Shown here one piece after another: positions 3,934 to 48,385 of a stretch of 64,000 nucleotides of DNA. The DNA is from Escherichia phage vB_EcoM_SP1. A program made the translations under genes and the position numbers. The stretch's first letter is position 1. Each line of letters starts with the position of its first letter. Location: the sequence record MT682709.1. One strand, 5' to 3'. The notes under the pieces were generated by a model that was not told where the DNA came from, searched no databases, and saw only the letters and a list, made by a program, of their open reading frames with translations.

Positions 3934-4423
3934 CTTAACTAGTGAAATGAAGGTCAAAATTGCTGATACAGCAAGATACTCTTTAAAACAAAATCCTAAT
4001 CAGGATAAAGCAGAAGTCATCGAAAGATGCCGTATCGCTGTGTACGCAGAATTTTTTGTAGCAGACTGGCTGAGCGGGTATGTTAACAAAGGCCAAGAGG
4101 ATGTTAATGACCCGTATACATACGCATGGGATGTATTGGCACACCCAAGATACTGCGGGCTTCGTGTAGAAGTTAAGACACATCAAACTGACTCACGTTG
4201 GATTTCGGTAACAACCGGATGCAGCGGAGAGTATCCATACGGTTCTGGAATAAATCTAGGGCCCATTCTGAATCATCAGGTCGCTGACTGTATAATTATA
4301 TTCAACACTAAAGAAATTCATCCAGGTGTCATCCAGTACACTCCGAAGTTCATCGGTGATAGAGAAGACCTTCGTAAGGTTGTAAGAAAAAGCAACTACA
4401 ACGGATGGTATCTTTCCATTTAA
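3866..4423 (+). CDS. denB: endonuclease IV (dC-specific ssDNA endonuclease)
   Basis: 185 aa, matching T4 EndoIV length; synteny between rIIB and ndd. Confidence 0.7.
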   Translation: MQKTNPGLQRLFQIPTFTLSNSDLTSEMKVKIADTARYSLKQNPNQDKAEVIERCRIAVYAEFFVADWLSGYVNKGQEDVNDPYTYAWDVLAHPRYCGLRVEVKTHQTDSRWISVTTGCSGEYPYGSGINLGPILNHQVADCIIIFNTKEIHPGVIQYTPKFIGDREDLRKVVRKSNYNGWYLSI

Positions 4424-4438
4424 AAATTTCACAAGACA

Positions 4439-4470
4439 GTTTACATACCACAAGGACCGTGGTACTATAC
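4439..4470 (+). promoter_or_regulatory. T4-type early promoter (GTTTACA -35, TACTAT -10, 17-bp spacer)
   Basis: GTTTACA at 4439, TACTAT at 4463; conserved leader ACAACTATCAACTGATAC shared with promoters at 8300 and 24968. Confidence 0.5.
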
Positions 4471-10100: not shown

Positions 10101-10302
10101 TTCAAAATCCGATTATTTTAACTCTCTCAATGATAAAGATAAAAATCTAATACGGCATTTTATTGTTGAGATGGGATATACTGATACACGTGATTTAAGA
10201 GAACATATATTTGAATGTGGTGTAGCTAAAAAGTTTTCATTCACGTGCAAATGTTTGAGAGAGGTAATTCAGCACTATGAACAATTTAGTCGCAAAACAT
10301 AA
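10084..10302 (+). CDS. hypothetical protein, 72 aa
   Basis: ORF overlapping upstream gene end; start uncertain. Confidence 0.4.
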   Translation: MAREINSKSDYFNSLNDKDKNLIRHFIVEMGYTDTRDLREHIFECGVAKKFSFTCKCLREVIQHYEQFSRKT

Positions 10303-40061: not shown

Positions 40062-40087
40062 ATGCTTTAAGAATTATTTGTTATTAT
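40060..40087 (+). promoter_or_regulatory. MotA-dependent middle promoter upstream of gene 31
   Basis: MotA box AATGCTTTA at 40061 and TATTAT -10 about 12 bp downstream. Confidence 0.5.
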
Positions 40088-41424: not shown

Positions 41425-41428
41425 GTTG

Positions 41429-41455
41429 AGGACTCCTTCGGGAGTCCTTTTTTAT
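41429..41455 (+). terminator. rho-independent terminator
   Basis: GGACTCC-TTCG-GGAGTCC hairpin plus TTTTTTATTTT. Confidence 0.65.
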
Positions 41456-42309: not shown

Positions 42310-42325
42310 AGGGGCTTCGGCCCCT
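42310..42325 (+). terminator. GGGGCTTCGGCCCC hairpin
   Basis: perfect 6-bp GC stem with TTCG loop; weak T-tract. Confidence 0.45.
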
Positions 42326-42826: not shown

Positions 42827-43029
42827 ATATAATTAATAAGATTTTTGGAATTCAGTACATTAAGGTCACATATAAAGTAACAGATAAAAATCCGTATACT
42901 GATGAACACGAAGAACCGCAAGTTAAGTCTATTATATTAGAAAAAGGCAGTGACTGGCCAGTTGAATTTCGTCTACCAAACTATGGTCATTGGGCTGATA
43001 TTGAAATTATAAGCATTGAAAATGTCTGA
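42823..43029 (+). CDS. hypothetical protein, 68 aa
   Basis: ATGA-coupled ORF. Confidence 0.45.
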   Translation: MNIINKIFGIQYIKVTYKVTDKNPYTDEHEEPQVKSIILEKGSDWPVEFRLPNYGHWADIEIISIENV

Positions 43030-43480
43030 GTTAGAGATTAGAAGTAATTTTAGGTGGCCATCATGTGCATTAAGTAATTTCGCCCAATGGCCTTTCGTTA
43101 TGGATGGTATCCAATTTGGAGGTCTTGAAGGATTCCTCCAAGGGTGTAAGGTGAAAAATGTTGAACAACAACGTCGTATATTTGGGTTATCCGGGCTTGC
43201 CGCCCAACAAGCTGGAAGGTCTTATGCTAGAGCTCAGGACCATGGGACTCTCTTCTGGCTTGGAGTTCCGTTTTCAAGATACTCCCCGGCGTGGAAAGAA
43301 TTATACACAAATGCATATTTTGAAGCAGCGATCCAAAACAAGGGCTTTCGTGATGCATTACAAGCCTCGAAAGGAAAAGTTTTGAAGCACAGCATGGCTA
43401 GTGGTCTAACAAAAGATGATACAATACTAACCGAATCTGAATTTATTGATGTGTTAAACCTATTAAGAGACTCTCTATGA
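43016..43480 (+). CDS. NADAR/YbiA-family (DUF1768-like) protein, putative N-glycosidase or ADP-ribosyl processing enzyme
   Basis: 154 aa; motif LSNFAQWPFVMDGIQF resembles the FSNFAAWPIKVDG block of E. coli YbiA as recalled. Confidence 0.55.
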   Translation: MKMSELEIRSNFRWPSCALSNFAQWPFVMDGIQFGGLEGFLQGCKVKNVEQQRRIFGLSGLAAQQAGRSYARAQDHGTLFWLGVPFSRYSPAWKELYTNAYFEAAIQNKGFRDALQASKGKVLKHSMASGLTKDDTILTESEFIDVLNLLRDSL

Positions 43481-44325
43481 AGCCTACTATTTTAACTGAT
43501 ATTGATGGAGTATGTTTAAGCTGGCAATCAGGCCTTCCTTATTTTGCTCAGAAATATAATCTTCCGTTAGAACATATTTTAAAAATGATCCAGGATGAGA
43601 AATTTATTTCTCCAGGTAAACTCTTTAATTGTGATGAAGAACTTGGTGTCAAGTTAATTGAAAAATACAATCGTTCAGATTTTATTCGTTACTTGTCTCC
43701 ATATAAAGATGCTCTGTGTGTAATTAACAAATTAAAAGAAGATTATAATTTTGTAGCTGTTACAGCATTGGGTGATTCTATTGACGCGCTGCTGAATCGT
43801 CAATTTAATTTGAATGCTCTTTTTCCTGGTGCCTTCTCAGAAGTAATGATGTGTGGTCATGATTCTTCAAAAGAAGAGTTGTTCAAAAAGGCAAAAGAGA
43901 AATATAACGTAATTTGTTATATTGACGATCTCGCTCACCACTGCGATCACGCGAGTGAAATATTAAATGTTCCTGTTTATTGGATGGCTCGAGGGGAGCG
44001 TGACAGTATTCCAAAAACTGCACAGCGAGTTTATACATGGAATGATGTAGAGAATAAGCTTTTTCCATCGAAGGAAAATAAAGAAAGTTTTGATAGTGAA
44101 AAAGTTATAAAAGATGTAATTGAGAAGATGATCAAAAACGATTCTTTTCCTTGGAACACTACCTGGAGAACTCCTGGATTTAATCCTTATAATCATCTAT
44201 ATCATCCATATCATCCATATCAGACACATCCGTTTCAGACATGGAACTATATTAAACCTGGTGGCATAGAGTATTTGTATAATAGACCTACTAGTGGTGA
44301 TAATATTTTCCAAGGAGCATTCTAA
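43477..44325 (+). CDS. HAD-superfamily hydrolase-like protein with C-terminal HPY repeats
   Basis: 282 aa; N-terminal DIDGV (HAD motif I) and YIDD motif; C-terminal HPYHPYQTHPFQ. Confidence 0.55.
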   Translation: MKPTILTDIDGVCLSWQSGLPYFAQKYNLPLEHILKMIQDEKFISPGKLFNCDEELGVKLIEKYNRSDFIRYLSPYKDALCVINKLKEDYNFVAVTALGDSIDALLNRQFNLNALFPGAFSEVMMCGHDSSKEELFKKAKEKYNVICYIDDLAHHCDHASEILNVPVYWMARGERDSIPKTAQRVYTWNDVENKLFPSKENKESFDSEKVIKDVIEKMIKNDSFPWNTTWRTPGFNPYNHLYHPYHPYQTHPFQTWNYIKPGGIEYLYNRPTSGDNIFQGAF

Positions 44326-44594
44326 TGTTTGTTGTTCATACTATTTATGAAAATGAAGGTAATACTACACGTGATTACGGTCACGTAAATCAATTTTTTA
44401 GATGCAATCCAGAATTCCGAGCTCAAAAAGACGAACGAATTTTTAAAAAATGTGTAGAGCAAGGTTTCATTTACGTCAAGCACTGGATGCAAGGAAATAA
44501 AGTTAGAACCACATATCATAGGTCTTTGACTGAGCTTAATGATGAATTGATTTATAATAGAACTGTAAATCAAACTCTGAAGGATGAACAATGA
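44325..44594 (+). CDS. hypothetical protein, 89 aa
   Basis: ORF coupled to upstream stop. Confidence 0.5.
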   Translation: MFVVHTIYENEGNTTRDYGHVNQFFRCNPEFRAQKDERIFKKCVEQGFIYVKHWMQGNKVRTTYHRSLTELNDELIYNRTVNQTLKDEQ

Positions 44595-46054
44595 TTCTTA
44601 AAATTCTGAATGAAATAGCATCTATTGGTTCAACTAAACAAAAACAAGCAATTCTTGAAAAGAATAAAGATAATGAATTGCTTAAACGGGTATATCGTCT
44701 GACTTATTCTCGTGGGTTACAGTATTATATCAAGAAATGGCCTAAACCTGGTATTGCTACTCAGAGTTTTGGAATGTTGACTCTTACCGATATGCTTGAC
44801 TTCATTGAATTCACGTTAGCTACTCGGAAATTGACTGGAAATGCGGCAATTGAGGAATTAGTAGGTTATATTACTGACGGTAAAAAAGATGATGTTGAAG
44901 TCTTACGTCGAGTAATGATGAGAGACCTTGAATGCGGTGCTTCGGTATCTATTGCAAACAAAGTTTGGCCAGGTTTAATTCCTGAACAACCTCAAATGCT
45001 TGCAAGTTCTTATGATGAAAAAGGCATTAATAAGAATATCAAATTTCCAGCCTTTGCCCAGTTAAAAGCTGATGGAGCTCGGTGTTTTGCTGAAGTTAGA
45101 GGTGATGAATTAGATGACGTTCGTCTTTTATCACGAGCTGGTAATGAATATCTAGGATTAGATCTTCTTAAGGAAGAATTAATCAAAATGACCGCTGAAG
45201 CCCGCCAGATTCATCCAGAAGGCGTGTTAATTGATGGCGAATTGGTATACCATGAGCAAGTTAAAAAGGAGCCAGAAGGCCTAGATTTTCTTTTTGATGC
45301 TCATCCTGAAAACAGTAAAGTTAAAGATTTCGCAGAAGTAGCTGAATCACGTACTGCTTCTAATGGCATCGCCAATAAATCTTTAAAGGGAACAATTTCT
45401 GAAAAAGAAGCACAATGCATGAAGTTTCAGGTCTGGGATTATGTACCGTTGGTAGAAATATACGGTCTTCCAGCATTTCGTTTGAAATATGATGTACGTT
45501 TTTCTAAACTAGAACAAATGACATCAGGCTATGATAAAGTAATTTTAATTGAAAACCAAGTAGTAAATAACCTAGATGAAGCTAAGGTAATTTATAAAAA
45601 GTATATTGACCAAGGTCTTGAAGGTATTATTCTCAAAAATATCGATGGATTATGGGAAAATGCTCGTTCAAAAAATCTCTATAAATTTAAAGAAGTAATT
45701 GATGTTGATTTAAAAATTGTAGGAATTTATCCTCACCGTAAAGACCCTACTAAAGCAGGTGGATTTATTCTTGAGTCAGAGTGTGGAAAAATTAAGGTAA
45801 ATGCTGGTTCAGGCTTAAAAGATAAAGCCGGCGTAAAATCACATGAACTTGACCGTACTCGCATTATGGAAAACCAAAATTATTATATTGGAAAAATTCT
45901 AGAGTGCGAATGCAACGGTTGGTTAAAATCTGATGGCCGCACTGATTACGTTAAATTATTTCTTCCGATTGCGATTCGTTTACGTGAAGATAAAACTAAA
46001 GCTAATACATTCGAGGATGTATTTGGTGATTTTCATGAGGTAACTGGTCTATGA
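44591..46054 (+). CDS. 30: ATP-dependent DNA ligase gp30
   Basis: 487 aa as T4 ligase; adenylation motif KADGAR. Confidence 0.95.
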   Translation: MILKILNEIASIGSTKQKQAILEKNKDNELLKRVYRLTYSRGLQYYIKKWPKPGIATQSFGMLTLTDMLDFIEFTLATRKLTGNAAIEELVGYITDGKKDDVEVLRRVMMRDLECGASVSIANKVWPGLIPEQPQMLASSYDEKGINKNIKFPAFAQLKADGARCFAEVRGDELDDVRLLSRAGNEYLGLDLLKEELIKMTAEARQIHPEGVLIDGELVYHEQVKKEPEGLDFLFDAHPENSKVKDFAEVAESRTASNGIANKSLKGTISEKEAQCMKFQVWDYVPLVEIYGLPAFRLKYDVRFSKLEQMTSGYDKVILIENQVVNNLDEAKVIYKKYIDQGLEGIILKNIDGLWENARSKNLYKFKEVIDVDLKIVGIYPHRKDPTKAGGFILESECGKIKVNAGSGLKDKAGVKSHELDRTRIMENQNYYIGKILECECNGWLKSDGRTDYVKLFLPIAIRLREDKTKANTFEDVFGDFHEVTGL

Positions 46055-46239
46055 AAGCTTACTTAGAAACAATTGTCATTGCTCAAAAAGAAGGTGGAGA
46101 TGTTTCTACTTCTGTATCACAAGTCATTCTCGAATTTGTAGATGCATACGCTTATAATAAATTTACAGAAACATTTGATGCCTATGAAAAAGGACCAAAG
46201 TTTGAAATATATCGTACTCTCTTACCACTAGATTACTAA
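46051..46239 (+). CDS. hypothetical protein, 62 aa
   Basis: ATGA-coupled to ligase; followed by hairpin GGCCTTCGGGCC. Confidence 0.5.
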   Translation: MKAYLETIVIAQKEGGDVSTSVSQVILEFVDAYAYNKFTETFDAYEKGPKFEIYRTLLPLDY

Positions 46240-46260
46240 AGGCCTTCGGGCCTTTAATTT

Positions 46261-46288: not shown

Positions 46289-48385
46289 ATGATGGAACTA
46301 ATTACAGAATTATTTGACGAAGATACTACTCTTCCGATTACAAACTTAAATCCAAAGAAGAAAATACCACAAATTTTTTCAGTTCATGTTGATGACGCAA
46401 TTGAACAACCAGGTTTTCGTTTATGTACCTATACATCTGGAGGTGATACTAATCGCGATTTAAAGATGGGCGATAAAATGATGCATATTGTTCCTTTTAC
46501 ATTAACCGCTAAAGGTTCAATTGCTAAATTGAAAGGTCTTGGTCCAAGCCCAATTAATTATATCAATTCGGTTTTTACTGTTGCAATGCAAACAATGCGT
46601 CAGTATAAAATTGATGCCTGTATGCTCCGTATTCTTAAGTCTAAAACTGCTGGTCAAGCTCGACAAATTCAAGTTATTGCTGATAGACTTATCCGTAGTC
46701 GTTCAGGTGGCAGATACGTCCTTCTTAAGGAACTCTGGGATTATGATAAAAAGTATGCATATATTCTTATACATCGCAAAAATGTATCACTAGAAGACAT
46801 TCCAGGGGTTCCGGAAATTAGTACCGAGCTCTTTACTAAAGTTGAATCGAAGGTCGGTGATGTTTATATCAATAAAGATACTGGAGCTCAAGTAACTAAA
46901 AATGAGGCAATTGCAGCATCTATTGCACAAGAAAATGATAAACGTTCTGACCAAGCTGTAATCGTTAAAGTTAAAATTTCCCGTAGAGCAATTGCACAAA
47001 GTCAATCATTAGAGTCTTCTAGATTTGAAAGTGAATTATTCCAGAAGTATGAATCTACAGCAGCTAATTTTAATAAACCAGCTACTGCACCTTTAATTCC
47101 CGAAGCAGAAGAAATGAAAATTGGAATTAATTCATTAGCTTCTAAAACTAAGGCAGCAAAAATCATTGCCGAAGGAACTGCAGATGAACTTCATTATGAC
47201 TATAAATTCTTTTCAAAAAGTGAGGTTAATGAAGTTTCTGAAAAAATTAAAGATGTAATTCTTAATGCGATTAAAAATGAACCGACTACTTCAATAAAAT
47301 GTTTAGAGAAATACGCAGCAGCTGTTAATCAATTATTTGAAGAATATAAAGATACTTGGCTTGATAAACATAATAAAACCCGTAAAGGACAGCCAGATGA
47401 AGTCTGGGAAGAAATAACTAAAAATTCCTGGAACGCGACAAAAACTAAATTCCTCAAAAGAATGATTTATAGTTTCTCTGGAATTGGTGCAGGTCCAATG
47501 ATTGATATTACTATTGCCCGTGATGGTTCTAAATATACTCCATCACAAAAGCGTGGCATTAGAGAGTATTGCGGTTCAGGATATACTGACATCAATAATC
47601 TTCTTTTGGGTCGTTATGATCCAGAACGTTATGAAGTAATGAGTGAAAAAGAAATTGAAGCTGCTATAACTAATTTAGATTCTGCTTTTGAAAATGGTGA
47701 TCGTATACCAGAAGGCATTACAGTTTATCGTGCTCAAAGTATGACTGCTCCTATATACGAAGCACTAGTTAAAAATAAAGTATTCTATTTCAGAAATTTT
47801 GTATCTACTTCTTTAACTCCTATCATTTTTGGACGTTTTGGAATTACACATGCTGGTATTGGTCTTTTAGAACCAGAATCTCGCAATGAATTAACAGTTG
47901 ATAAAAATGAAGAAGGAATAACTATTAATCCAAACGAAATAAGAGCGTATAAAGAAAATCCTGAATACGTTAAAGTTCAAATAGGATGGGCAATTGATGG
48001 AGCTCATAAAGTTAATGTTGTATATCCAGGAAGTCTCGGAATAGCAACAGAAGCTGAAGTTATTCTACCGCGTGGATTGATGGTCAAAGTTAATAAAATA
48101 ACTGATGCTTCTAATAATGACGGAACAACATCTAATAATACAAAACTCATTCAAGCTGAAGTTATGACTACGGAAGAGCTCACCGAATCGGTAATCTATG
48201 ATGGAGACCATTTAATGGAAACTGGTGAATTGGTTGCAATGACAGGTGATATTGAAATAGAAGACAGAGTTGACTTTGCATCATTTGTTTCATCAAACGT
48301 TAAACAGAAAGTAGAATCATCTCTTGGAATTATTGCGTCTTGCATAGATATTACAAACATGCCTTACAAGTTCGTTCAAGGATAA
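46289..48385 (+). CDS. alt: ADP-ribosyltransferase Alt (head-packaged)
   Basis: 698 aa; N-terminus MELITELFD with I-x-E prohead-protease site; position after gene 30. Confidence 0.85.
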   Translation: MMELITELFDEDTTLPITNLNPKKKIPQIFSVHVDDAIEQPGFRLCTYTSGGDTNRDLKMGDKMMHIVPFTLTAKGSIAKLKGLGPSPINYINSVFTVAMQTMRQYKIDACMLRILKSKTAGQARQIQVIADRLIRSRSGGRYVLLKELWDYDKKYAYILIHRKNVSLEDIPGVPEISTELFTKVESKVGDVYINKDTGAQVTKNEAIAASIAQENDKRSDQAVIVKVKISRRAIAQSQSLESSRFESELFQKYESTAANFNKPATAPLIPEAEEMKIGINSLASKTKAAKIIAEGTADELHYDYKFFSKSEVNEVSEKIKDVILNAIKNEPTTSIKCLEKYAAAVNQLFEEYKDTWLDKHNKTRKGQPDEVWEEITKNSWNATKTKFLKRMIYSFSGIGAGPMIDITIARDGSKYTPSQKRGIREYCGSGYTDINNLLLGRYDPERYEVMSEKEIEAAITNLDSAFENGDRIPEGITVYRAQSMTAPIYEALVKNKVFYFRNFVSTSLTPIIFGRFGITHAGIGLLEPESRNELTVDKNEEGITINPNEIRAYKENPEYVKVQIGWAIDGAHKVNVVYPGSLGIATEAEVILPRGLMVKVNKITDASNNDGTTSNNTKLIQAEVMTTEELTESVIYDGDHLMETGELVAMTGDIEIEDRVDFASFVSSNVKQKVESSLGIIASCIDITNMPYKFVQG

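Follow-up and report, generated by a model that had tools for sequence, protein, structure and literature searches.

Does the short open reading frame between genes 30.4 and 30.2 of Escherichia phage vB_EcoM_SP1 encode a NADAR enzyme, and does such an enzyme act against DarTG defense? The question was raised by a preliminary description of the 64,000-nucleotide stretch of sequence record MT682709.1 analyzed here (hereafter the window), which proposed a NADAR/YbiA-like product, named it as a candidate counter-defense factor against DarTG-type systems, and regarded its function in T-even phages as not experimentally settled. Our analysis identifies the gene as an intact allele of adfN (anti-DarT factor NADAR), the orthologue of T4 gene 30.3. 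It is thus a known gene rather than a new finding.

An intact orthologue of T4 gene 30.3

The six-frame ORF list of the window contains this reading frame at 43016..43480 on the + strand, with 154 aa counted from a TTG codon and the block ...ALSNFAQWPFVMDGIQFGGLEGFLQGCKV... in its product, in agreement with the original description. Use of that in-frame TTG would lengthen the product by two residues, while the T4 RefSeq start of the orthologous 30.3 lies two codons downstream and corresponds to the ATG at 43022. Because published residue numbers (E36, K43) follow this start, it was adopted throughout (Table 1). Three observations show that the ORF is a genuine gene rather than a frame open by chance: its match to Pfam PF08010, the presence of homologues in 1510 phage records, and the mostly synonymous codon differences from its relatives. 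The PF08010 match (Phage_30_3, “Bacteriophage protein GP30.3”) covers model positions 1-138 of 138 with 233.4 bits and E = 8.1e-70, above the gathering score of 36 bits. The homologues, retrieved by tblastn, come from nearly exclusively T4-like phages, including those of Escherichia, Klebsiella, Aeromonas, Acinetobacter, and Vibrio, and the gene is labeled a hypothetical protein in most database records. Correspondingly uninformative labels were obtained from other resources: the PHROGs assignment is phrog_652, function unknown, and scans of the product against NCBIfam and PADLOC, neither of which has a model for adfN, returned no match.

Table 1 Positions of adfN, its functional elements, and neighboring genes in the window
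Feature	Position	Strand	Basis or remark
adfN (gene 30.3), coding sequence	43022..43480	+	152 aa plus stop; ORF list, identity to T4 NP_049816, PF08010
Overlap of adfN start and 30.4 stop, 8 nt	43022..43029	+	ATGTCTGA; ORF coordinates and sequence
Conserved N-terminal NADAR core, block L17-V44	43070..43153	+	LSNFAQWPFVMDGIQFGGLEGFLQGCKV; aligns to YbiA residues 29-56
E36 codon (GAA), catalytic glutamate by alignment	43127..43129	+	aligned to YbiA E48; invariant, 67/67
K43 codon (AAG), putative phosphate-coordinating lysine	43148..43150	+	aligned to YbiA K55; K in 65/67
H123 codon (CAC), signature of the phage (gp30.3) NADAR clade	43388..43390	+	aligned to YbiA E125; invariant, 67/67
C-terminal alpha-helix, residues 138-151, intact	43433..43474	+	AF2 model
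Overlap of adfN stop and 30.2 start (ATGA)	43477..43480	+	ORF coordinates and sequence
Gene 30.2	43477..44325	+	282 aa; start overlaps adfN stop
Gene 30, DNA ligase	44591..46054	+	match to T4 counterpart

Compared to T4 gp30.3 (NP_049816), the product is identical at 149 of 152 positions (98%) and equal in length, and the two share genomic position, E36, K43, H123, and the C-terminal helix, as befits the same gene in a sister Tequatrovirus. The window allele differs by three substitutions (H74R, M125I, and S139A, window to T4), all at positions that vary freely across 67 diverse homologues. Codon differences were mostly synonymous (synonymous:non-synonymous 5:3 relative to T4 and 25:7 relative to RB69), a pattern that fits adfN being under purifying selection.

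A second frame overlaps the gene. A 75-aa ORF nested within adfN in the +1 frame (43158..43385, + strand) corresponds to the annotated T4 gene 30.3', is intact in T4, and is preceded by a good Shine-Dalgarno sequence (AAGGTGAAAAATG). We rejected 30.3' as the relevant product: in RB69, a stop cuts this ORF after 34 codons, which makes it doubtful as a real gene.

Membership in the NADAR superfamily

To place the product among known folds, we relied on a family alignment of 67 full-length homologues, extending down to 35% identity. When the resulting profile was compared to PDB sequences, E. coli YbiA (2b3w) ranked top (E = 0.035), and hhalign of the same profile against YbiA covered 91 columns with 93.5% probability (E = 2.3e-7). 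It is exactly the block highlighted in the preliminary description that the family profile aligns to YbiA (Table 1), so that the likeness noted there is real. A search of PDB sequences with the single window sequence returned nothing meaningful (best E = 0.7, to an unrelated entry), and no solved structure of any gp30.3 protein was found in the PDB searches.

The NADAR assignment itself therefore stands, supported by this profile alignment and by the catalytic residues described below, whereas the expected affiliation with Pfam PF08719 (DUF1768) does not: the PF08719 HMM did not match the window protein even at E ≤ 1. The absence of a significant hit to this model had been put forward as grounds for abandoning the assignment. 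We consider such a test too narrow, since 26 of the 67 homologues do match PF08719 at E ≤ 1 (best 1.5e-7) and the family profile aligns to YbiA. Taken together, the product is a member of the NADAR superfamily, in its phage His-type clade, lying outside the PF08719 model set, the YbiA family, and the DarG1 family, and filed under the sister model PF08010. It is a minimal, core-only putative N-glycosidase of the NADAR fold, and its case shows that a missing PF08719 match does not exclude a NADAR.

Conservation across the family is concentrated around the expected active site. Seven residues of the N-terminal block (S18, N19, F20, E36, G37, F38, and Q40) were invariant in the 67 homologues, and the glutamate and lysine of the N-terminal ...SNF...E.(F/Y).Q..K motif are present as E36 and K43. 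Together with the phage-clade H123, all catalytic residues whose loss had been named as a further ground for doubt are thus found in the product. Published equivalents are E43 of PnNADAR and E88 of E. coli C7 NADAR for E36, and K50 of PnNADAR and K95 of E. coli C7 NADAR for K43; the role of the equivalent lysine has been described (PMC11543638). H123 comes after the strand formed by residues 120-122 in the AF2 model, and the KVLK-H segment aligns with AKLV-E of YbiA. The residue at this last strand differs among NADARs: members of the YbiA family have Glu, those associated with DarT1 have Asp, and those of phages (gp30.3) have His (Cihlova et al. 2024, Schuller et al. 2023; PMC11125620, PMC11543638). 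By analogy to the PnNADAR-ADPr structure and to E. coli C7 NADAR, and based on these alignments, E36 and H123 of the window protein would flank the distal ribose, and K43 would hold the pyrophosphate.

Genomic setting

Comparison of window ORFs to the T4 locus by tblastn confirmed the proposed placement within the gene 30.x cluster. On the + strand, the order is 30.8, 30.7, 30.6, 30.5, 30.4, 30.3, 30.2, 30.1, and 30, with each of these genes encoding a product 90-99% identical in amino-acid sequence to its T4 counterpart. Flanked by 30.4 and 30.2, gene 30.3 lies upstream of the DNA ligase gene, within the interval bounded by genes 31 and 30. The window represents a Tequatrovirus (T4-like) genome, its + strand corresponding to the T4 minus strand. 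When a 2.3-kb segment surrounding adfN was searched, it matched 715 phage records, the best at 96.9% (phage T6 and Shigella phage SHFML-11), and for a 25-kb piece of the window, identity to the nearest records retrieved was about 96-97%; given this level of identity across the surrounding genome, the window derives from a different strain or species.

Within this block, adfN overlaps both of its neighbors (Table 1), and the ATGA junction with 30.2 also occurs in the T4 and RB69 sequences, as seen from DNA alignment. We searched upstream of the adfN ATG for a strong Shine-Dalgarno sequence and found none, from which we infer that adfN is probably translationally coupled to its neighbors in the 30.x block. 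No DarT domain was detected in the flanking ORFs, 30.4 being without a Pfam match and 30.2 HAD-like.

Transcription signals were less informative. A scan for promoter and terminator consensus sequences around adfN performed no better than on shuffled sequence, and we drew nothing from it. On the + strand, GC hairpins with T runs that resemble terminators enclose the 30.8-to-ligase block at 41428..41449 and 46237..46256, and between 30.7 and 30.6 there is another on the minus strand (42325..42310); all are consensus matches only, their number not exceeding that in shuffled sequence. The pattern TGCTTYA, 11-13 nt, TANNNT, used here to represent a MotA-box-like middle promoter, occurred 7 times in the window versus 2.5 expected, with one occurrence at 40063..40087 (+), on the coding strand about 3 kb upstream of adfN.

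An alt-like ORF of 698 aa (46289..48385, + strand) closely follows the ligase gene, where T4 has alt (Alt ADP-ribosyltransferase). A writer of ADP-ribose thus lies 2.8 kb downstream of an eraser, adfN, the two sharing one strand. In some close relatives, two alt-like genes occupy the alt position.

Function of AdfN and relation to known systems

The proposed role against DarTG was correct, and the view that the function is unsettled is out of date, since T4 30.3 has been published as AdfN with anti-DarTG1 activity (PMC11825919, PMC11125620, 10.1101/2025.11.20.689424). Johannesman, Awasthi, Carlson and LeRoux (Nat Commun 2025) mapped T-even resistance to DarTG1 to 30.3 and renamed the gene adfN (PMC11825919). 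In the same study, AdfN-T4 was necessary for T4 resistance, ectopic AdfN-T4 was sufficient to rescue RB69 on DarTG1 hosts, and AdfN-T4 was impaired by E36A, by K43A, and by C-terminal truncation; the purified protein stripped ADP-ribose from DarT1-modified DNA in vitro, the E36A variant did not, and AdfN-T4 did not bind DarT1 (PMC11825919). An independent group reported that the T4 NADAR hydrolyzes guanosine-ADPr and not thymidine-ADPr in vitro (Cihlova et al., Toxins 2024, PMC11125620), and a 2026 paper, in which the T4 NADAR again represented the phage family, confirmed G-ADPr hydrolysis. In a 2025 HIDEN-SEQ transposon preprint, insertions in 30.3/adfN were lost specifically on the DarTG1 host, making the gene conditionally essential (10.1101/2025.11.20.689424).

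These data on T4 suggest how the window gene would act. DarT1 ADP-ribosylates guanine in phage DNA and blocks replication, as described in the literature; AdfN, presumably produced early from the 31-30 interval, would then hydrolyze the N-glycosidic bond between guanine and ribose, releasing ADP-ribose and restoring replicable DNA. The protein would thus be a phage-encoded orphan counterpart of the DarG1 antitoxin and leave the toxin unbound. For the window gene, identity with the T4 gene, synteny, fold, catalytic residues, and full length were all established here, and we consider it very probable that this adfN orthologue encodes a guanine-ADP-ribosyl-DNA glycohydrolase countering DarTG1. 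At 98% identity, the window protein is expected to act like its T4 counterpart in both G-ADPr hydrolysis and protection from DarTG1, and E36, K43, and H123 would take the individual roles suggested by analogy to other NADARs.

The window gene is nevertheless distinct from other characterized NADARs. DarG1, which serves DarTG1 as its BC4488-type NADAR antitoxin (Geobacter lovleyi NADAR 8bat and the NADAR of E. coli C7 being examples), differs in several respects: the window gene has no adjacent DarT1 gene, its product lacks the N-terminal extension and consists of the core only (152 aa versus 219 for the 8bat chain), the last-strand catalytic Asp of DarG1 is a His (the literature agrees on both the missing extension and the His), and T4-type AdfN, according to the literature, is no antitoxin in uninfected cells. 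E. coli YbiA (PDB 2b3w; PF08719) is only about 20% identical, with E125 in place of H123, and is a housekeeping N-glycosidase encoded beside the dinG operon rather than a counter-defense gene; it belongs to the LexA-controlled dinG operon (PMC11125620). Closer in role are AdfN-Bas32 (T5-like) and AdfN-Bas60 (Vequintavirinae), which are likewise phage-borne orphan NADARs, reverse DarTG1, and are specific for guanine-ADPr. However, these belong to other NADAR clades and were independently acquired. They are active in uninfected cells and also benefit unrelated phages, while T4-type AdfN depends on a T-even context.

Alternative explanations

RB69 shows that natural null alleles of adfN occur in close relatives. 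It carries an extra T at gene position 411 (after 410, between window positions 43431 and 43432) that shortens the protein by 15 residues. C-terminal truncation lowers AdfN activity (PMC11825919), and RB69 is sensitive to DarTG1 because this insertion truncates its AdfN. Several database entries are likewise truncated fragments, so that the window copy might itself be decayed or inactive. We assign this reading next to no probability: the frame is full-length, all catalytic and invariant residues are kept, no frameshift is present, and changes relative to RB69 are mostly synonymous. DNA alignment confirmed that the RB69 record carries the lesion and that both the window and T4 lack it, which excludes an RB69-like null allele from the sequence itself. 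Past the frameshift, RB69 retains the ATGA junction of 30.3 with 30.2 (RB69 locus position 10225, in the sequence at 10205-10230), which makes its adfN lesion look like one recent insertion rather than decay over a long time.

The remaining alternatives concern what an intact AdfN acts on. The degradation of ADPr signals by T4-like NADARs was predicted in 2022, and the main substrate could be soluble ADP-ribose derivatives or small N-ribosides, such as host immune signals or YbiA-like intermediates of the riboflavin pathway, instead of ADP-ribosylated DNA. This is very unlikely, because the glutamate typical of the YbiA family is replaced by His in every one of the 67 homologues, and because in vitro the T4 orthologue strips ADPr off DNA, and T4 deprived of it becomes specifically sensitive to DarTG1; an additional activity on small molecules may nevertheless exist. 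Slightly less probable still is a main activity on ADP-ribosylated RNA (tRNA or mRNA) or on marks left by the ADP-ribosyltransferases (ARTs) of the phage itself, e.g., Alt, with DNA repair under DarTG1 being secondary. In vitro hydrolysis of RNA G-ADPr has been reported for representatives of every NADAR family in the 2026 paper, Jiaodavirus and Biquartavirus homologues are located inside the tRNA gene cluster, the alt-like ORF shares the strand of adfN, and T4-like NADARs have been noted in the literature as co-expressed early with ARTs. Against this, DarTG1 sensitivity is the sole in vivo phenotype known, no RNA-directed guanine ADP-ribosylating defense met by T4 was found in the literature examined, Alt targets proteins rather than nucleic-acid bases according to T4 annotation, and gene position is weak evidence. 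The reading of AdfN as an enzyme that acts on DNA ADP-ribosylated at guanine is thus the one we retain.

Gene 30.2 and the T-even context

One aspect of AdfN-T4 does not fit a fully autonomous enzyme. AdfN-T4 did not rescue uninfected E. coli from DarT1 and rescued the siphophages T5 and Bas25 weakly (PMC11825919), and a second group likewise observed no rescue of uninfected cells by the T4 NADAR (PMC11125620). A glycohydrolase acting all by itself therefore does not account for everything, and a T-even factor is postulated. Such a potentiating factor could be a neighbor in the translationally coupled block, gp30.2 being the obvious candidate; or else His-type NADARs could have a second natural substrate in the form of ADP-ribosylated RNA or tRNA, as hinted at by the homologues that lie within tRNA clusters in other T4-like genera. 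We regard this pair of explanations as improbable, if somewhat less so than the alternatives weighed above.

The N-terminus of gp30.2 (MKPTILTDIDGVCLSW) contains HAD-phosphatase motif I (DxDGV). Weak matches of the protein to the PNKP phosphatase domain were obtained with Pfam (E = 0.18) and with phrog_415 (E = 0.003), and the annotation of a homologue from a Morganella phage reads HAD hydrolase. We considered whether a tight pairing of 30.2 with 30.3 could serve as a clue to the potentiating factor. In Acinetobacter phage AbTZA1, a 30.2 homologue accompanies the NADAR gene. That of Proteus phage SJ_PmiM adjoins the ligase gene, with five ORFs separating it from the NADAR gene; Aeromonas phage 31.2 and Klebsiella phage ValerieMcCarty05 carry the NADAR gene inside a tRNA cluster and not in the 31-30 interval, and no 30.2 homologue was found near it. 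Since the two genes separate in these three phages, we rejected the pairing as a clue. Moreover, gp30.2 is about as widespread as gp30.3 (1439 versus 1510 phage records), so that their co-occurrence says nothing specific.

Other features of these loci may be recorded here. In both Aeromonas phage 31.2 and ValerieMcCarty05, the NADAR gene (positions 4001-4450 of the extracted locus in each case) has a tRNA gene directly downstream. ValerieMcCarty05 also carries a NUDIX hydrolase gene about 4 kb from its NADAR gene, and in AbTZA1, PseT and an ADP-ribose pyrophosphatase gene are found about 3 kb upstream of the NADAR gene.

Implications

These results add little beyond one more intact allele of a characterized counter-defense gene, present in ~1500 sequenced T4-like phages; their practical value is one of annotation. 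An intact adfN predicts resistance of the phage to DarTG1-type defense, and its presence matters for choosing phages against DarTG1-carrying hosts.
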